Source: Candidatus Melainabacteria bacterium RIFOXYA2_FULL_32_9 (GTDB lineage Bacteria > Cyanobacteriota > Vampirovibrionia > Gastranaerophilales > UBA9579). From it: a stretch of DNA of 50,125 nucleotides. Made by a program: the position numbers and the translations under genes. The stretch spans positions 1-50,125 of the forward strand of contig MFRQ01000153.1 of NCBI GenBank assembly GCA_001784615.1, given 5' to 3'. The notes under the pieces were generated by a model. It worked only from the letters and a program-made list of their open reading frames with translations. It made no database searches and was not told the origin of the DNA. Below, piece by piece: positions 8,903-46,393 of this stretch. Each line of letters opens with the position of its first letter. Position 1 is the stretch's first letter.

Positions 8903-9190
8903 TTATTTACTCCACTTACAATAGATTTTCTAAACATTTTGGCTGAGATTCTATTAAATCTAAATTTTCTTACTTTCTCATAATAAATTAATCCGATTAT
9001 TAACCAATCTTTTAGGATGTAATTAATATTTCAGCGCTATCATTGTGATAAGGAAGAAATATGAGAATCTCGTTATTGAAGAAATTATTAAATTATTGTG
9101 TAAGTTTTTAGCAATAATTATACAAATATTGTTTTTATATAAATAGAGGAAGAAATTCCTTTTAGATAAAAATGCGATTTGGGAAGGGAA

Positions 9191-10153
9191 ATGGTCAGGA
9201 ATATTAATTACCCTCAATATTTCTACCAATCAGGCAGGACAAATCAAGATTTGCCTGCTTATAATGAGTTTCGCTTAAAATATGATAAGCATAATGCCAC
9301 GCTAGATCCTAAATTAGCCAGAGATATTGAGGATATTAAAGATATTCTTGATATTTTTGCTCTACAAAAAAAAGCTGATAGTGAAAATAAGTCAAAGGCA
9401 TTATTGAGCCCTGTACCATTTGTTAGAAAACTTGACGGTGCACAGGAATCTTTTAAAGAAGGTGACATTCTAAAAAGCTTAGGTAAATTTGGACTTTTGG
9501 CAGCTTGCTTACCTGAAGATACAAGAGATGTAAATAATGCTGTTAACCAGATTCTTGGAAAAGGAGATAAAAGCATTCCTTATAGTTATCAACCTAAGTT
9601 TTCTTTCTTCAGGGGGACTTTATTTGAATCTGGACTGAAAAAACTCAATGATTCACAAAATAGTACTTTGCAATCTATAGGTAAAAAAATATATAAAGCT
9701 GATAAAACTCTTTATGACACCCAATTAGGTCTAAAATTCCTAAAAAAATTGGGCTGGCAAGACGACTTGGCCAAAAACACCTCACGTATTGATTTTATGG
9801 ATAGAGTAATACAAGGATCAAAAATTAAAGGAAGTTTAATTTCAAAAATACTCGGCAAATCTATGCTCAGAATTCCAACTCTAAGCATAATAACCCTTTC
9901 AATATTGGAAATACCTTCCATAATAAAAGCTTTTACCCAAAAAGACAATTCAAAAGATAACCTGATAAATGGCACAAAACAAACAGTAAAATCGGGAATT
10001 AATGTTTCATCATTATTATCCGGTGGAGCTGTCTTAGGTGCTATAGGTCAAAGCCTGCTAGGTCCTGTTGGCTCTTTAATAGGTTTAGGATTAGGATCCT
10101 ATTACGGCTCTCAGACTGGAAAGTTTATAAACGATAAAATAGACAGAATCTAA
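9191..10153 (+). CDS. hypothetical membrane protein with C-terminal glycine zipper
   Basis: The track start at 9179 is TTG. ATG 9191 preceded by GGGAAGGGAA is more likely. 320 aa, no family recognised. C-terminus has IPTLSIITLSILEIPSII and GGAVLGAIGQSLLGPVGSLIGLGLGSYYG. Confidence 0.6.
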   Translation: MVRNINYPQYFYQSGRTNQDLPAYNEFRLKYDKHNATLDPKLARDIEDIKDILDIFALQKKADSENKSKALLSPVPFVRKLDGAQESFKEGDILKSLGKFGLLAACLPEDTRDVNNAVNQILGKGDKSIPYSYQPKFSFFRGTLFESGLKKLNDSQNSTLQSIGKKIYKADKTLYDTQLGLKFLKKLGWQDDLAKNTSRIDFMDRVIQGSKIKGSLISKILGKSMLRIPTLSIITLSILEIPSIIKAFTQKDNSKDNLINGTKQTVKSGINVSSLLSGGAVLGAIGQSLLGPVGSLIGLGLGSYYGSQTGKFINDKIDRI

Positions 10154-10626
10154 TCCTTATATCCTAATTTCTCGAGAATTTCCTGATTAATTTTTAGTTC
10201 TTCAAGTGTTTTTACAACTGTTTCTTTTGGAATATTCCATTTATCCTTTAAAATTTCACCATAATCAGGAATTAGGTCTTTTCCAGAGGGCATAACCTGA
10301 GTAGCTATTAAAATAGCTTTTATATTTTCAGGAGTTCCTTTAATATTTTCATCCATCACATATGCACGTAATGCAGCAATATCACCCCATAAGCTTCTGT
10401 CTATTTCTTTAAGAAATTGCTTATCAGCACCACTTTTAAGGAGTTCTTTCATCTCTTTACTATCACCAAATAAATCACCAAAAAATCCTTTAAAATTAAC
10501 TGTATTTTGACTTAAACTAACCGTGTCCTGATCTAACTGCTGCAACTTAGGCATATCATGGTGAAAACTTTTCTGAGATTTATTAACATAATTATTGCCC
10601 ATAAAACTGTTCATATTAATTTTCAT
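10150..10626 (-). CDS. hypothetical protein, tandem paralog 1
   Basis: 158 aa. Roughly three-quarters identical to the next ORF by eye. AAGGA SD upstream. Its stop overlaps the stop of the convergent 9191 gene by 4 nt. Confidence 0.6.
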   Translation of the reverse strand: MKINMNSFMGNNYVNKSQKSFHHDMPKLQQLDQDTVSLSQNTVNFKGFFGDLFGDSKEMKELLKSGADKQFLKEIDRSLWGDIAALRAYVMDENIKGTPENIKAILIATQVMPSGKDLIPDYGEILKDKWNIPKETVVKTLEELKINQEILEKLGYKD

Positions 10627-15076: not shown

Positions 15077-15922
15077 TTAACTTCTGAGTAATGATAATGC
15101 TAATTGCGGGATTTGATTGGCTTGGGAAAGCACGCTAGCAGATGCTTGTTGAAGTATTTGATTTTTAACCATATTAGCTGTCTCTTTAGCTATATCAAGA
15201 TCACGAATTCTGGATTCTGATGCCTGAATGTTCTCATTCATTACTGTAAGATTTTCTAATGTACTTTCTAATCTATTTTGTAAAGCACCTATATTTGATC
15301 TCTTTGTTGATATTGCGGTAATTGCTGAGTCTATTACTCCTAAATAGCTTCTAATTAAAGTTGAAGTCCATGCACCACCAGTTATAGCAATAGTAACTCC
15401 GATTGTTGATGATTGAGTATCTGTTAAAACACTAGCTACATCTATGGTATTGGTTGATACAGTTGAATTAGCACCAACTTGTAACTTTGTACTTGTAGCA
15501 GTACCATCAAGTACGGAAATATTATTAAATTTTGCACTCTTAGCAATTCTGGTAATATCATCAATACGTGCATTTAATTCTGCAAGAATTGAGGTTCTTT
15601 CAACTGAACCGTTAGTATCGTTAGCAGCTTGAATGCATAGTTCTCTTATTCTTTGAAGGTTCTCATTTATTACGGTAAGTCCACTTTCAGCAATCTGGAG
15701 CAGGTTAATACCATCTTGTACGTTACCGATTGCTTGTTTGTTACCTCTAATTTGACCTCTTAATGCTTCTGAAATTGATAATCCAGCTGCATCATCTGAT
15801 GCTCTGTTAATTCTGTAACCCGAAGATAATTTCTCAATGGATTTTGTTAAGTTAGATGTGTTTTTGTTCAAGTTTCTTTGTGCGATTAAAGATGCAACGT
15901 TGTTGTTGATAATAATTGACAT
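15077..15922 (-). CDS. flagellin paralog (short, about 281 aa)
   Basis: Same conserved N/C blocks. The track start 15931 is a GTG abutting the SD. ATG 15922 has AGGGAG 8 nt upstream. Confidence 0.92.
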   Translation of the reverse strand: MSIIINNNVASLIAQRNLNKNTSNLTKSIEKLSSGYRINRASDDAAGLSISEALRGQIRGNKQAIGNVQDGINLLQIAESGLTVINENLQRIRELCIQAANDTNGSVERTSILAELNARIDDITRIAKSAKFNNISVLDGTATSTKLQVGANSTVSTNTIDVASVLTDTQSSTIGVTIAITGGAWTSTLIRSYLGVIDSAITAISTKRSNIGALQNRLESTLENLTVMNENIQASESRIRDLDIAKETANMVKNQILQQASASVLSQANQIPQLALSLLRS

Positions 15923-16327
15923 AGTAAACACTCCCTGTATTCTTAAATTTACTTCCTTGTAAACTAAAATTTATACATAACAAACTAAAGCCAGTATCAC
16001 TGTCATTTTTTGTAAATTTGAAAACAAAAGTCCCTGTAATAATTAGCAGATACTAATCATTAAACTATTTTGATTGCTTAATTACCTTTCATAAATCCAT
16101 CCCGGACTTATCAGGTTAGCTTATTTCCTAAGCTTATTTATATTCAGTCATTTGATTAATCCATAAATCATTAGACTTTTATAAAGTAAGCTTAAAAAAC
16201 GTCGTAATTAAAAAACTGTAAAAACTTTCATATTTAAACCCTCCCGGAAATCCTCGTTATCAATAAATATAAGTTTATTGAGTCTCTCCCTTTTACTTAT
16301 TTAGTTGTTTTTCACTCTCTACATTTA

Positions 16328-16354
16328 ATATCGGTTCACCTTAAAAAAACTTTA
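16328..16354 (-). promoter_or_regulatory. sigma-28 (FliA/SigD)-type promoter
   Basis: rc reads TAAAGTTT (16347-16354), 11 nt, ACCGATAT (16328-16335), against consensus TAAA-N15-GCCGATAT. Points toward flagellin 15922, about 400 nt downstream. Confidence 0.6.
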
Positions 16355-42527: not shown

Positions 42528-43781
42528 TTACTTATTAACTGTACGATATACAGCCATATGTTCAGGGTTAATAGATAACCAGGTGAATGAAGTTTCTTCA
42601 CTTTCATCAACCTGTGGCATGCTAATAACAAAAGTACCACCGTATCTACCACGAGAAAACTTAACAACATTCTGTTCAGAAAGTCTTTGAAGTGCTTTTC
42701 TAATGGTATTGCTACTAACTTTTAATTGTAAAGCTAATTTACTCATTGCAGGAAGCTTATCGCCAACTTTATAATTCTCTTTAATCAAGAGCTTCATATG
42801 ACGCTCAACCTTTTCATAGTTATAAAGACTTGCTTCTAAAGCTGAAGCAAAAATTGAATCTGCGTCACTACCATAAAACTGAGCTTCTGATGGTAAACGC
42901 ATAATAAATGTACCGTATCTACCTCTTTTAGACTTAAGGATGCCTTGCTCGACCAAGCGTTTCATAGCATCATGAACTGTCTTAATACTCACTTTTAAAA
43001 TATCAGCTAGTTCAAAGTGTGACGGTAATTTATCATTAACCTGAAATCTCTGGCCAATTAATTCTTTTAGATCACGCTCAACTTGATTTACAAGAGTATC
43101 TGATTCAAGATTTGCATCAATTTCGTCGCATTCGTCAATAACAGGTATATCTTTTAGAATCCAGTTAGCTTTGTTACCCCTGCAACCTTTTGATTCAATA
43201 ATACCAATGCTTGCAAGATATTCTAAAGCCAAACGTGTAGTATTTGGTGCACTACCGATAACTTTAGCTAATTCTCTTGATGAAGGAAGTGGCTCACCAA
43301 CCGAGTATGAATTTTTAACTATGATTTTCTTTAATGCCACTATTGCCTGTTCACGTTTAGAAGTTTGTTTTCTAAGTTCTGCCGCTGGACTACTAATATC
43401 TCTGACAAAAGTACCAATACGCTGTTTAGATTCAACATGCCCTTTATCTTCAATAAATCTAATTGCAGTTTGGACAGTACCGATACTAACTCCAAGATGT
43501 GCAGCAAGAGCGGCTTTTCTTGGTAGTAAATCATTCTTTTGAAGTTTACCTTCTTTTAATCCCGCTTCAATCCACTGAATTATCCAATCAGCAAGAATAT
43601 TATCTTTTGTTCTGATTGAAGTTTTAAAATCAGGAAGCTTATTTGGAAGCTCACTAATCTCAATTCTGCGCAAGTTTGCTTTTGTAATGATTTTCTTGTT
43701 GTTCAAATTCAATAATTCAGCATTTGCCATAACACTGTCCTTCACTTCTTCCTGTGACCTCAATTCATCTGCGATTACCAT
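42528..43781 (-). CDS. transcription-factor-like protein with four tandem GntR-type winged-helix domains
   Basis: Four repeats of the xLPSxRxLAxxLxVSxxTVxxAxxxLxxxGxxxxxxGxGxF pattern: LLPRKAALAAHLGVSIGTVQTAIRFIEDKGHVESKQRIGTFV; PLPSSRELAKVIGSAPNTTRLALEYLASIGIIESKG; KLPSHFELADILKVSIKTVHDAMKRLVEQGILKSKRGRYGTFIM; KLPAMSKLALQLKVSSNTIRKALQRLSEQNVVKFSRGRYGGTFVI. Confidence 0.8.
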   Translation of the reverse strand: MVIADELRSQEEVKDSVMANAELLNLNNKKIITKANLRRIEISELPNKLPDFKTSIRTKDNILADWIIQWIEAGLKEGKLQKNDLLPRKAALAAHLGVSIGTVQTAIRFIEDKGHVESKQRIGTFVRDISSPAAELRKQTSKREQAIVALKKIIVKNSYSVGEPLPSSRELAKVIGSAPNTTRLALEYLASIGIIESKGCRGNKANWILKDIPVIDECDEIDANLESDTLVNQVERDLKELIGQRFQVNDKLPSHFELADILKVSIKTVHDAMKRLVEQGILKSKRGRYGTFIMRLPSEAQFYGSDADSIFASALEASLYNYEKVERHMKLLIKENYKVGDKLPAMSKLALQLKVSSNTIRKALQRLSEQNVVKFSRGRYGGTFVISMPQVDESEETSFTWLSINPEHMAVYRTVNK

Positions 43782-43834
43782 ATATTTAAAACCTCCTGAC
43801 TTATACTTAACGAAATACCGTAATATTAAAATTT

Positions 43835-43932
43835 ATAGTAGTACAACAACGTAAACTGATAGCTTGAAATTAAGTCTGCCTGTTTCAGTGGTTATAGTCG
43901 ATAACTTAAGTTAGGTAATGGATATTACCAAA
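43835..43932 (-). repeat. left copy of 98-nt inverted repeat (upstream of the 4xGntR gene)
   Basis: The rc aligns without gaps to 45934-46031, 80 of 98 identical. The first 22 nt (TTTGGTAATATCCATTACCTAA) are identical. Confidence 0.85.
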
Positions 43933-44337
43933 TTTATTTAGCTTCCCTACCTACTTAAATATGTTGTATTTTTAAATAAGTATTCGTTGATAATAATAAA
44001 ACAAGAGCATGAAAAAAAATTGCTAAAATTTAAAAAAATATTAAGTACAAATTTTTTTTTACGTTATACAAAACAAAAAAAAATCCCAAACCAACCATAA
44101 ATATTGAGTAAAAAAAATCATAATTTATCAAAAACTTATTTTTTTATTATTAAGATTTTTTAATATCAACTAGAATTTTCATCTAAATGATTTTAATAAT
44201 CTTAATGGAAATTATAAATTCTGAAAGATTCATCTTATAAACCCAAACTAATAATGACAATACGCTGCAGCTCATTTCAGAAATAAATAAAAACTCAGGT
44301 TTCTGGAACAATATAGATAAAAAATAAATCTAAATAC

Positions 44338-44366
44338 TTGATAAGTATTTTGGCTTTAAGTAATAT
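44338..44366 (+). promoter_or_regulatory. candidate sigma-70 promoter of rpmB
   Basis: TTGATA (44338-44343), 17 nt, TAATAT (44361-44366), about 50 nt upstream of the rpmB ATG. Confidence 0.5.
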
Positions 44367-44419
44367 GTTAGTGAAAAAGTTAAAAGAGTTTAAGTATTAA
44401 AATATAAGAGGTAAAAACA

Positions 44420-44611
44420 ATGTCCAAACAATGTACAGTATGTGGAAAAACACCATTAAAAGCAAACAAAGTAAGCTTCTCAAACAAGCATCATAGATAT
44501 CGCCAATTTCCAAACTTACAATCAATAAGAGCAAACATTAACGGTACAGTTAAAAAAATTAGCATATGTACTTCCTGTATAAAAGCTAATAAAGTTCAAA
44601 AAGCCATATAA
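44420..44611 (+). CDS. rpmB: 50S ribosomal protein L28
   Basis: 63 aa. MSKQCTVCGK...VSFSNKHHRYRQFPNLQ is typical of L28. Confidence 0.9.
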   Translation: MSKQCTVCGKTPLKANKVSFSNKHHRYRQFPNLQSIRANINGTVKKISICTSCIKANKVQKAI

Positions 44612-44702
44612 TACAAAAAGTTATATAATTAAACTTACCTATTGAATTTTCATCATTCATTATAGTAAGTTTAGTATATATAATATCCAGTTATAATTAA
44701 CA

Positions 44703-44740
44703 CCTCTTTAAGGTTGCTCCTTAAAGAGGTTCTTTTTATT
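44703..44740 (+). terminator. rho-independent terminator of rpmB
   Basis: 11-bp stem CCTCTTTAAGG (44703-44713) / CCTTAAAGAGG (44719-44729), then TTCTTTTTATT. Confidence 0.8.
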
Positions 44741-44797
44741 ATGTATACCTAATAAGGACAGCGTAAAAATACTTATGGATTTTGATGAGCGAAGCGA

Positions 44798-44842
44798 GAG
44801 CTTACAATTTCGAAAACGACGAGTTTTTGAAATTGTAAGCTC
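44798..44842. repeat. 20-bp-stem perfect hairpin with adjacent repeat-family fragments
   Basis: GAGCTTACAATTTCGAAAAC (44798-44817), loop GACGA, GTTTTTGAAATTGTAAGCTC (44823-44842), one G-T wobble. GGTGACTCAGTCAC and CACTATTAAAGTCT next to it also occur in the 18.8-kb cluster. Confidence 0.7.
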
Positions 44843-45093
44843 ATTCTAATCCAATAGGTATTTTTGTAGGTGACTCAGTCACACTATTAAAGTCTTTAAC
44901 TATTTCAACCTTATATATGTGCCTTTGGCACTTCTTATAACCAGCAAATAATCGAGCAATAAAAAATGCGTAAGTATTTTTTATTGCGTCCTTAATATAC
45001 CCCGGAATCCAATTGCTTTTTCCTTTAATATTTCCCAAAATAATAAAAGATTTTCTAAAAATAAACGTATATATTCGAGGGGAGGCGTTATAT

Positions 45094-45792
45094 ATGTATA
45101 TTCATAATGAATTCCTGGAATTACAAGTTAGCATAGTCTTCTATTTAATAATGATTCCTCTCTGGGCTCTGGCATTCAACAAAATAAGGAAAATCTTTAA
45201 ACTAGATTCCATCCCCATAATTATCCTGGGAACCGCTTTCTCTTTTACCATATTAATGTTTGATCTACCGTTTTTAATAGAAATCCCGGGCAATATAACC
45301 TGCGCTACCCTGCTAAGTATTTTATTCGGACCCTGGACAAGTTTAATAATAATAACTTCAGCTTTAATGATAAAAAGCATTTTTTTCGGAGATGGAGGGA
45401 TAAGTACTTTTGCGGTAAATAGCTTTATATTAGCCTTTATTACTTCTTTTACAGGTTATTATTTATATAATAAAGTAAATTCCTCAAAAACCTTAAGAAC
45501 GATTTTTCCTAAACCATTAATTGCAGGAATTAGCGCATATTTTTCATCAATTTTCTCGGTAATATCACTAATATTAATATTTAAACTGCAAATCCTGCTG
45601 GTAGGAGTAAATACCTCTTCTGATTTTCCATATACAATACGTAGTATGATAGCTATAATGCTAGCAGAACATTTATTAATTCTCGGACTTATTGAAGCTG
45701 CGATAACTATAACAGCCCTTGTCTTTTTAACAAGAGATAATAATTATTTATTAAATCTAATAACCAAAAATAATAAACTTTTAGTCAATTAA
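45094..45792 (+). CDS. CbiM/NikM-like ECF-type membrane protein (orphan)
   Basis: The track start 45013 is TTG. ATG 45094 follows GGGGAGG (45079-45085). 232 aa and polytopic. LFGPWTSLIIITSALMIKSIFFGDGGISTFAVNSF resembles the CbiM core LLGPW...LLFGDGG. Confidence 0.55.
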   Translation: MYIHNEFLELQVSIVFYLIMIPLWALAFNKIRKIFKLDSIPIIILGTAFSFTILMFDLPFLIEIPGNITCATLLSILFGPWTSLIIITSALMIKSIFFGDGGISTFAVNSFILAFITSFTGYYLYNKVNSSKTLRTIFPKPLIAGISAYFSSIFSVISLILIFKLQILLVGVNTSSDFPYTIRSMIAIMLAEHLLILGLIEAAITITALVFLTRDNNYLLNLITKNNKLLVN

Positions 45793-45803
45793 TTCATTTT
45801 ATG

Positions 45804-45891
45804 AACAAAAGGGAAAGCCGCACTTGTCTTAGGGGCGCGGCTATCAGGCTTGGGGAGGAGATTGGGTAATTTCCCAATTCTATGGCTTTAT
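45804..45891 (-). ncRNA. candidate sigma-28-dependent small RNA with C-rich (anti-SD-like) tract
   Basis: G+C-rich island in AT-rich DNA directly downstream of a consensus sigma-28 promoter. Hairpin 45859-45881, single-stranded CCUCCCC, terminator-like hairpin AGCCGC/GCGGCU (45816-45842) followed by UUUCCCUUUUGUU. No ORF. Confidence 0.4.
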
Positions 45892-45898
45892 ATTATAT

Positions 45899-45925
45899 AT
45901 ATCGGCACGTTTCCAAAAAACTTTA
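45899..45925 (-). promoter_or_regulatory. consensus sigma-28 (FliA/SigD)-type promoter
   Basis: rc reads TAAAGTTT (45918-45925), 11 nt, GCCGATAT (45899-45906), an exact match to TAAA-N15-GCCGATAT. Confidence 0.6.
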
Positions 45926-45933
45926 ATAATTTT

Positions 45934-46031
45934 TTTGGTAATATCCATTACCTAATTTAGGTTAACGATTAAAGCCACTGAAGCAGTTAGACTTAGTTTA
46001 AAGTTACCAGTTATCGTTGAAGCACTACTAT
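45934..46031 (+). repeat. right copy of 98-nt inverted repeat (upstream of the 91-aa ORF)
   Basis: See 43835-43932. Contains the palindrome GGTAAT-ATCC-ATTACC. Confidence 0.85.
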
Positions 46032-46117
46032 TTTTTTTATTCTTTTAAGATATATTAATTTAGTATTTCAATGGATTGTAGTAATATTATTTAGTAATAC
46101 AAGGAAACCTGAGAAAA

Positions 46118-46393
46118 ATGGACAAAAAAGAATTAGTTGAACTTCTTCTAGAAAAAAAATTTGGCACTAAAAACCCGGCTGAAATTAAAAATATACTAGA
46201 AATTAATATTTTTGAGTCTTTAGACGATTCAGAAAATCCTCTTGGCATTGGAGTAGAAATTATTCTTGAAGATGAAAATGGAAACGAAATAAAAGAAGAG
46301 TATCAAATAAACAAAGAAGGTGTAATTTATTCCTGGGGAAACGCACCTGTTATTGATGAAAGAAGTCTTGAAAAGGCCCCAAAGTTAGATTAA
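46118..46393 (+). CDS. hypothetical acidic 91-aa protein
   Basis: ORF with AAGGAAAC upstream. No family recognised. Confidence 0.5.
   Translation: MDKKELVELLLEKKFGTKNPAEIKNILEINIFESLDDSENPLGIGVEIILEDENGNEIKEEYQINKEGVIYSWGNAPVIDERSLEKAPKLD

Follow-up and report, generated by a model that had tools for sequence, protein, structure and literature searches.

Two kinds of bacterial small RNA (sRNA) offer the closest comparisons for the element analysed here, a candidate sRNA gene on the minus strand at positions 45804-45925 of a 50,125-nucleotide (nt) stretch of contig MFRQ01000153.1, assigned to Candidatus Melainabacteria bacterium RIFOXYA2_FULL_32_9; by the window we mean that whole stretch. 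The first kind is made under a flagellar sigma factor: sigma-28-dependent sRNAs include UhpU, MotR, FliX and FlgO in Escherichia coli (PMC10578931) and CJnc170/FlmR in Campylobacter jejuni (PMC11187230), and the four E. coli RNAs derive from untranslated regions (UTRs) and bind Hfq, with MotR and FliX pairing inside coding sequences (PMC10578931). The second kind exposes an unpaired region between structured ends or within C-rich motifs. Yfr1 consists of a 5' stem-loop, 16-20 unpaired nt that include the ultraconserved ACUCCUCACAC, and a GC-rich terminator (PMC2190773; for the Yfr10 family, PMC6778093); the csRNAs of Streptococcus are sibling sRNAs with an anti-Shine-Dalgarno sequence in the unpaired region between two stem-loops (PMC3091779); and RsaE/RoxS of Firmicutes use C-rich unpaired motifs to pair with G-rich ribosome-binding sites (PMC6158497, PMC5419742).

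The host reads as an ACD20-like melainabacterium (Gastranaerophilales) of aquifer metagenomes, not a Firmicute; the tyrosyl-tRNA synthetase (TyrRS) encoded in the window is 89% identical to ACD_20C00127G0005, and the next named relatives are Candidatus Gastranaerophilales. The window also agrees letter for letter with a contig of the NCBI assembly GCA_001786555.1. Melainabacteria are known almost solely from metagenomes. Flagellated and non-photosynthetic, they are the sister lineage of Cyanobacteria (PMC3787301, PMC4040986), and no regulatory RNA of Melainabacteria (Vampirovibrionia) turned up in the literature that we consulted, in which no search was aimed at that point. The sRNA family set out below is previously undescribed, the kinds to which it would belong, flagellar-sigma-controlled sRNAs and anti-Shine-Dalgarno-seed sRNAs, being known.

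We hold with good confidence that the element is a true sRNA gene, transcribed in its own right and equipped with a promoter of the sigma-28 type. The fuller account that we favour, in which this is a free-standing sigma-28-driven gene whose C-rich tract pairs with G-rich ribosome-binding sites and which has siblings elsewhere in the clade, is probable, and action by pairing with such sites, taken by itself, is slightly favoured. The evidence computed here comprises the promoter match, the non-coding nature of the unit, the purifying selection acting on it, and paralogs that share its promoter boxes, C tract and terminator stem. In more general terms, the element has the features of a base-pairing sRNA gene: it is non-coding and intergenic, it has its own promoter and intrinsic terminator, and it holds a conserved seed that is predicted to be single-stranded.

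On the minus strand, TAAAGTTT-N11-GCCGATAT (45925-45899) matches the sigma-28 (FliA/SigD) consensus exactly, as had been claimed in an earlier description made from the letters alone (hereafter the sequence-only reading), with the boxes at 45925-45918 and 45906-45899 on either side of 11 nt. As we define the class, a sigma-28 promoter has a -35 element TAAA(GTTT) and a -10 element GCCGATAA, with 15 nt from TAAA to GCCGATAA and 11 nt between the two 8-mers; the locus carries this motif at this spacing, the motif also stands before late flagellar genes, and the boxes are kept in relatives while the spacer varies. The -10 element is GCCGATAA in one family member (variant B) and ACCGATTA in a paralog at another locus (L035), and because the spacer of that paralog is completely different in sequence, it is the length of the spacer and not its sequence that is kept.

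A 27-nt promoter pattern, allowing up to two mismatches, has 2 matches in 50 kilobases (kb) against 0.05 expected by chance, and a looser pattern, TAAA-N14-16-CCGAWA, recovers the same two sites and none further in a scan of the 50 kb. The second site, TAAAGTTT-N11-ACCGATAT (16354-16328, minus strand), faces two tandem flagellin genes with Pfam Flagellin_N and Flagellin_C domains. The sequence-only reading had taken this sole comparable match as an internal control, a use that holds, although the promoter and the first flagellin ATG (15922) are ~400 nt apart and not adjacent; no terminator-like site was called between the promoter and the flagellin genes, the first called one following the second gene. 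No minus-strand open reading frame (ORF) lies downstream of the promoter at 45925-45899, again in line with the earlier description, the next gene being the convergent CbiM-like gene at 45094-45792. From the promoter alone, the RNA gene would be under sigma-28 control.

The flagellin leader itself (15922-16354, minus strand, ~400 nt) holds a mini-ORF of 7 codons (MKVFTVF) that is preceded by a strong ribosome-binding site, GGGAGGG, and the two flagellin genes (15931-15077 and 14918-14076) seem to have a single terminator in common, at 13975-13954.

Transcription from sigma-28 promoters usually starts 7-9 nt past the -10 element, and the predicted RNA unit covers ~88 nt, from ~45890 to 45804 on the minus strand. 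The unusual G+C content noted earlier for the ~85 nt after the promoter is borne out: the RNA body (45804-45890) has 49.4% G+C, the window as a whole 32.7%, and the body ranks within the top 0.2% of 87-nt windows. Across the element, the minus strand reads ATTATTAAAGTTTTTTGGAAACGTGCCGATATATATAATATAAAGCCATAGAATTGGGAAATTACCCAATCTCCTCCCCAAGCCTGATAGCCGCGCCCCTAAGACAAGTGCGGCTTTCCCTTTTGTTCATAAAATG. Its predicted fold agrees with the 5' hairpin, unpaired tract and terminator-like AGCCGC/GCGGCU hairpin of the sequence-only reading, the arms of the 5' hairpin lying at 45878-45873 and 45866-45861 and those of the terminator at 45842-45835 and 45823-45816. The folding energy of the window copy is -22.8 kcal/mol (z = -2.9 against shuffles), and the orthologs and variant B range from z = -2.9 to -5.0. 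The C tract is unpaired in all five full-length folds (three orthologs, the reconstructed variant B and the L035 paralog), and within it CUCCUCCCCAAG is invariant in 6 of 6 aligned members, the paralog included, and occurs only once in the window.

The promoter, together with a U tract found on the minus strand only, fixes the minus strand as that of the gene. In the plus-strand reading, the hairpin runs into ATCAGGCTT, which contains no T run and would not terminate transcription; in the L035 paralog and in variant B, the U runs are longer than that of the window copy.

Syntenic relatives were found in ENA groundwater assemblies (L001/L002) and in the ACD aquifer data set (L010, AMFJ01007824.1), and the gene order rpmB, cbiM, element and an ORF of 91 amino acids (aa) is common to these and the window. 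Counted from the -35 box through the last base of the U tail, 118/126 nt (L001) and 119/126 nt (L010) are identical to the window, compared with 55-67% identity at the third positions of codons in rpmB, cbiM and the 91-aa ORF in the same relatives, whose CbiM proteins are 63% identical to that of the window in amino-acid sequence. A sliding comparison gives the same picture, with 93-95% identity in the element, ~70% in the gene on one side, and intergenic flanks that are below 50% or unalignable.

The differences in L001 and L010 are placed in the two hairpin loops, the 5' leader, the promoter spacer (one base, in L010) and one base of the U tail, and no change is seen in the boxes, both stems or the C tract among the orthologs compared. 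The leader differs, between the -10 box and the 5' hairpin, by one substitution and one 1-nt deletion. The 5' hairpin loop is AAAUUA in the window, UUAUUA in L001 and AUAUUA in L010, and it is also altered in variant C and in a closer strain from run X5, for which three differences are listed, all of them at loop positions (45826, 45829 and 45869, the last in the 5' hairpin). The terminator stem AGCCGC/GCGGCU is unchanged in all members while its loops vary in sequence and in length (CCCUAAGACAA, CCCAAACAAA, CGAAAAA and CCAAAA), the differences in relatives including a 1-nt deletion. On these comparisons, strong purifying selection acts on the RNA unit and has kept its stems and C tract free of substitutions. 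Loss of the promoter boxes and the C tract in relatives, which the sequence-only reading had named as a finding that would refute it, was looked for in two relatives; both features are kept, promoter plus RNA being 94% identical where the neighbouring genes approach saturation at third codon positions.

The same alignments bear on coding potential. Two frames were considered and rejected, a minus-strand frame opening with UUG (27 codons) and a plus-strand ORF at 45850-45960 (36 codons) that follows GGGGAGGAG, each being shifted in the relatives by 1-nt indels (AAAGCC to AAACC in L001, an equivalent single-A deletion in L010, and others in the terminator loop). Because both candidate frames are broken while the nucleotides stay 94% identical, the unit is non-coding.

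The unit reads as one of a multi-copy sRNA family in the ACD20-like clade. A paralog occupies an unrelated locus on the minus strand of L035, from the ACD20-type assembly GCA_003499585.1, on a contig that also carries the ACD20 TyrRS. It consists of TAAAGTTT-ATAAAAAAAAT-ACCGATTA followed by ...GUAGACCACUGAUUACCAUACCAAACCUCCUCCCCAAGUCUAGUAGCCGC-CCAAAA-GCGGCUUUCUUUUUUUGUU, with the tract ...CCUCCUCCCCAAGUCUAGU preceding AGCCGC-loop-GCGGCU and a U run. What the window copy and this paralog have kept in common is only the -35 box, CCGAT at the same spacing, CCUCCUCCCCAAG, the AGCCGC/GCGGCU stem and the U run, the pattern that would be expected if exactly these elements are functional.

Further members were found in assembled contigs of runs X1 and X2, where the promoter is shared, the 5' hairpins differ and (A)UACCCCAA is present, continuing to (U/C)CUCCU in two of three members (variant B and contig 477317). 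In variant B, GCCGATAA...AGACCGAAUUAGGUCAUACCCCAAUCUCCU... leads to AGCCGC-CGAAAAA-GCGGCU as terminator, with a U run after it; variant C differs in its loops but keeps the stems; contig 477317 continues from the shared promoter into GAGACCAAAGUGGUCAUACCCCAACCUCCU; and contig 320316, sharing the promoter too, continues into GUAAGGCCAAAUUUUGGCCAUCAUACCCCA, the 30 letters recovered ending in ACCCCA, short of any CUCC part. The alternative 5' hairpins in other members are GACC/GGUC, GACCA/UGGUC and GGCCAA/UUGGCC. Comparison of the contigs hides differences up to 30 nt from the alignment ends, variants B and C are partly reconstructed, and variant B may, by our own count on such partly reconstructed sequence, hold up to 3 substitutions in CCCCAAGCCUGAUAGCCGC.

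Searches for additional copies were made at several ranges. A covariance model of the family (R1) detects no second copy in the window or in ~17 kb of extra flanks from the same genome, and its 21-bit match in L033, which was set aside, covers the terminator only. In 10-kb TyrRS flanks of related Gastranaerophilales, synteny is lost, and the paralog is present in L035 only, with none in the other loci. Among JGI metagenome contigs, the core 19-mer has 9 hits, one of which is a true homolog (L010). Homologs of the 91-aa ORF in L018 and L019 show no element in the ~110 nt of upstream sequence that these loci provide, and in another (L020) an insertion sequence (IS) remnant occupies the place of the element. 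Distant CbiM homologs (P0003, P0004 and P0006) lie in ordinary cbiMNQO operons of other organisms, with no sRNA.

At the L035 locus (8982-10172, minus strand), the 335-aa ORF downstream of the paralog has no Pfam hits on record; ORFs of 102 and 664 aa come after it, as do sbcD/sbcC-like genes, and this downstream module may be related to DNA repair or defence.

Transcription, sigma-28 dependence, the pairing mechanism and its targets are what we infer from these features, and together they would make up the following course of events. RNA polymerase carrying a flagellar sigma factor (sigma-28/FliA type) would initiate 7-9 nt past GCCGATAT and transcription would end at the AGCCGCGC/GUGCGGCU hairpin and U tract, the RNA being made alongside late flagellar genes such as flagellin. 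The two hairpins would keep the invariant tract CUCCUCCCCAAG(CC) single-stranded, the tract would bind GGGGAGG-like ribosome-binding sites on a subset of mRNAs, and this pairing would block the initiation of translation, alter mRNA stability, or both.

In bacteria generally, CCUCC is the core of the 16S anti-Shine-Dalgarno sequence. The C tract contains CCUCC, extended to CUCCUCCCCAAG, and because it extends the anti-Shine-Dalgarno sequence, the best pairing is expected with unusually G-rich ribosome-binding sites. Pairing with the tract is predicted to be weaker than -12 kcal/mol for most of 37 start regions in the window, whereas three reach -21.0 to -14.3 kcal/mol and the mini-ORF site in the flagellin leader -15.4; the candidate targets are given in Table 1 with the features of the element. 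The complementarity of CCUCCCC to a GGGGAGG before the CbiM-like gene, to which the sequence-only reading had drawn attention, is present at 45079-45085, 8 nt before the cbiM ATG, and this is the only perfect 7-mer complement of the CCUCCCC core at the ribosome-binding site of a window gene, a weaker 7-mer, AGGAGAU, complementary to the 5' edge of the tract, preceding an 81-codon ORF at ~3376. In L001, the cbiM site is GGGGGAG instead; and because L001 has a separate hairpin between cbiM and the sRNA gene, the adjacency of the two genes is probably coincidental.

Table 1. Coordinates of the predicted features of the element and predicted pairing of the C tract with candidate target start regions.
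Feature	Position	Strand	Remarks
-35 element TAAAGTTT	45918..45925	-	exact consensus; unchanged in L001, L010 (both orthologs) and L035 (paralog)
Promoter spacer TTTGGAAACGT, 11 nt	45907..45917	-	same in L001; 1 change in L010; unrelated ATAAAAAAAAT in L035
-10 element GCCGATAT	45899..45906	-	CCGAT unchanged in 6/6 aligned family members
Predicted transcription start (~45889-45891) and short single-stranded 5' leader	45879..45891	-	inferred from usual spacing
5' hairpin AUUGGG / CCCAAU, 6 base pairs (bp), loop AAAUUA	45861..45878	-	predicted fold; stem invariant among orthologs
Unpaired C-rich tract CUCCUCCCCAAGCCUGAU, 18 nt, putative seed/anti-Shine-Dalgarno	45843..45860	-	unpaired in predicted folds
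Terminator hairpin AGCCGCGC / GUGCGGCU, 8 bp including one G-U, 11-nt loop	45816..45842	-	predicted fold
U-rich tail UUCCCUUUUGUU, predicted 3' end	45804..45815	-	T run after hairpin, minus strand only
malK-like ABC ATPase (candidate target)	40195		predicted duplex -21.0 kcal/mol
cbiM (candidate target)	45094		predicted duplex -15.8 kcal/mol
7-codon mini-ORF, flagellin leader, at ~16230, GGGAGGG (candidate target)			predicted duplex -15.4 kcal/mol
pfkB-type kinase (candidate target)	49058		predicted duplex -14.3 kcal/mol

Set beside the described systems, the RNA matches no Rfam family. Rfam 15 gave no hit at gathering thresholds over the whole window (a search that covers Yfr1, RsaE and csRNA if they are in the release), searches with 601 nt and 106 nt at E up to 10 returned only noise that scored far below threshold (rli60, snR33, TarB and mir-1017), and a scan for tRNA and tmRNA found none. 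With the sigma-28-dependent sRNAs it would share a synthesis tied to the late flagellar sigma factor, a tie by which post-transcriptional control is coupled to the assembly of flagella, and it resembles them in its strong 3' stem-loop and in size, MotR being ~95 nt long; going by their descriptions, it is set apart from them as a free-standing unit with its own promoter and terminator, by its C-rich tract and its paralogs, and by its phylum.

Yfr1 is similar in architecture and comes from the sister lineage; the loops are variable in both, CUCCUC is shared, the unpaired centre is 18 nt here, and the arrangement of 6 bp, 18 nt and 8 bp falls within the 5-10 bp, 12-25 nt and 5-10 bp with U tail that describe Yfr1. 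The Yfr1 motif, by contrast, is matched in its best register, UCUCCUCCCCA, at 7/11 positions, and likewise at 7/11 in the paralog, where the published descriptor allows at most two mismatches; the RNA is ~88 nt long and not 54-69 nt, its neighbours are cbiM and the 91-aa ORF with no guaB-yfr1-trxA synteny, no Rfam model matches, and a sigma-28-type promoter is seen only in the melainabacterial RNA. Because motif, length, synteny and promoter all differ, we do not assign the RNA to Yfr1, and it is unlikely that the family is the melainabacterial counterpart of the Yfr1/Yfr10 class and predates the split between Cyanobacteria and Melainabacteria.

The csRNAs are alike in having several siblings per genome that bear the promoter signature of one regulator, some of them with the terminator stem-loop only, as in L035; their regulator, however, is the response regulator CiaR and no sigma factor, they belong to Firmicutes, no Rfam family matched the melainabacterial RNA, and the anti-AUG (CAU) that accompanies their anti-Shine-Dalgarno sequence is not evident in it. 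RsaE and RoxS have several C-rich regions and are controlled by redox regulators. The sequence-only reading had likened the element to this type, which is fair as a functional analogy and fails as a family assignment, given that no Rfam match appears even at E<=10 on 106 nt; phylum and promoter differ as well.

Several observations weigh against the account that we favour. No sigma factor gene, fliA included, is found in the 50-kb window, and no mention of fliA or sigma factors was found in two Melainabacteria genome papers (in their text, and in supplements of one). RNA sequencing runs with this sequence were not found, its carriers being DNA runs of groundwater metagenomes only. Compensatory base-pair changes, generally looked for in a structured sRNA, are absent: 0 of 14 pairs are altered on both sides, the stems being either invariant or lost, and the L035 paralog has no stable 5' hairpin in its fold; as covariation is not seen, the evidence for structure consists of the folding energy, the restriction of variation to loops and the replacement of one hairpin by another. 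The same paralog is followed, 60 nt on, by a 335-aa ORF of the same strand. As for targets, no long or extended complementarity is present in the 50 kb besides the gene's own antisense strand, and a tract containing CCUCC would pair with almost any Shine-Dalgarno site, which would blur specificity. Finally, the exact core 19-mer has only 6 hits in 185,579 species-representative (GTDB) genomes, rejected as chance matches because they lie in high-GC or unrelated contexts without the promoter or the hairpins; the family has so far been met only in ACD20-like aquifer Melainabacteria, a weak negative from an exact-word search.

Among other explanations, the one that fares best accepts the RNA as real and takes its C tract to be a protein-binding site, acting by titration or recruitment, or a sponge for G-rich RNA, and we regard it as rather unlikely. 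More than 12 nt are invariant in every member, where a 6-7-nt seed would need less, no convincing extended mRNA target is found within the window, and the same alternative was raised for the ultraconserved motif of Yfr1 by its authors (PMC2190773). Against this, the tract is an extended anti-Shine-Dalgarno sequence whose best matches in the window fall exactly at ribosome-binding sites. We are aware of no protein in this bacterial lineage that recognises a C-rich tract of this sort.

The convergent arrangement with cbiM raises the question of whether the promoter drives antisense or convergent transcription into the 3' end of that gene, to act by cis-antisense pairing or transcriptional interference, with the hairpins serving as an attenuator. 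The predicted tail ends ~11 nt from the cbiM stop (45792), and the plus-strand hairpin lacks a T run, so that read-through from cbiM could produce a complement of the sRNA. This overlap is not conserved, however: L001 has a bidirectional-looking hairpin, AACAAGAAGCTTATTTCC...GGAAATAAGCTTCTTGTT, between cbiM and the sRNA, the L035 paralog sits at an unrelated locus without cbiM, and selection is seen on the C tract and the stems and not on the cbiM-proximal part, all of which makes an antisense role distinctly unlikely.

Two further explanations are very improbable. The position of the L035 paralog 60 nt before a same-strand ORF would suit a 5' leader or an attenuator that serves a gene downstream, but no same-strand gene follows in the window, L001 or L010, where the gene that comes next is convergent, every member keeps a complete intrinsic terminator, and no riboswitch or leader family matches. 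Equally remote is a reading in which the high identity comes from mobile DNA that underwent recent horizontal spread or gene conversion. The locus is an intergenic hotspot for mobile DNA, with a ~100-nt multi-copy repeat abutting the promoter, other repeats at that place in L001 and L010, and an IS remnant in a related strain; the unit nevertheless keeps the same syntenic position between cbiM and the 91-aa ORF in three genomes, shows no terminal repeats, is single-copy in the window and the extra flanks examined, and has substitutions that spare the stems, boxes and C tract, in a family whose paralog has diverged everywhere else. That the element encodes a small protein, for which one could cite that both frames are open in the window and that the plus-strand one has a strong Shine-Dalgarno-like sequence, has next to no probability in view of the frame-shifting indels described above.

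The free-standing sRNA gene that we favour lies in a region with several other features. The dispersed repeat of ~100 nt occurs at 45934-46039 (plus strand), directly upstream of the sRNA promoter, and at 43827-43932 (minus strand), with 80% identity between the two copies, and it is multi-copy in metagenome contigs, reaching a depth of up to ~190 against 5.6 for the genome; because its depth is so far above that of the genome, it suggests an element like a miniature inverted-repeat transposable element (MITE). L001 and L010 lack this repeat at the promoter and have a different one there (GGACTGCGGTTAAAATTGCAAGCGGCTTGCTTGGCAAGGCG...), which in L010 is also found upstream of cbiM, and the IS remnant in the related strain L020, a transposase remnant, sits at the spot of the repeat.

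Upstream of rpmB (L28), an AT-rich stretch of ~490 nt at 43930-44420 is ~90% identical to L001 and L010, with ~110 nt (~43960-44080) nearly invariant, a level that third codon positions in the adjacent genes come nowhere near; the region shows neither an Rfam match nor a conserved ORF. Between rpmB and cbiM, ~240 nt (44750-44990), just past the rpmB terminator hairpin at 44702-44730, are absent from L001 and L010 and constitute an insertion or a deletion. The CbiM-like membrane protein (45094-45792, plus strand) is solitary, with no cbiN, cbiQ or cbiO following it in the window or in L001, and its nearest homologs outside the clade (~35% identity) are all encoded in full cbiMNQO operons. At 42528-43781 (minus strand), a 417-aa protein has four tandem GntR-type winged-helix domains and no effector domain, which is unusual for a GntR regulator. 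The 91-aa ORF (46118-46393, plus strand), divergent from the sRNA gene, encodes an acidic protein with no Pfam match, and its homologs, at 72-99% identity, were found in this aquifer clade only.

If the sRNA gene is what it appears to be, this would be a first sRNA family in Melainabacteria, put forward from sequence and comparative evidence alone, and the covariance model R1 offers a means of annotating further genomes for the family. That flagellar sigma factors drive sRNAs besides structural genes has been recognised recently, so far in E. coli and Campylobacter, and the present RNA would carry this theme over to a distant phylum. Were the family a true counterpart of Yfr1, a class of riboregulator would have been wired to the flagellar sigma factor, as sibling sRNAs, in the flagellated sister lineage. 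Because its tract extends the anti-Shine-Dalgarno sequence, the RNA could couple the motile state of the cell to the translation of certain mRNAs, a defined subset whose ribosome-binding sites are unusually rich in G.

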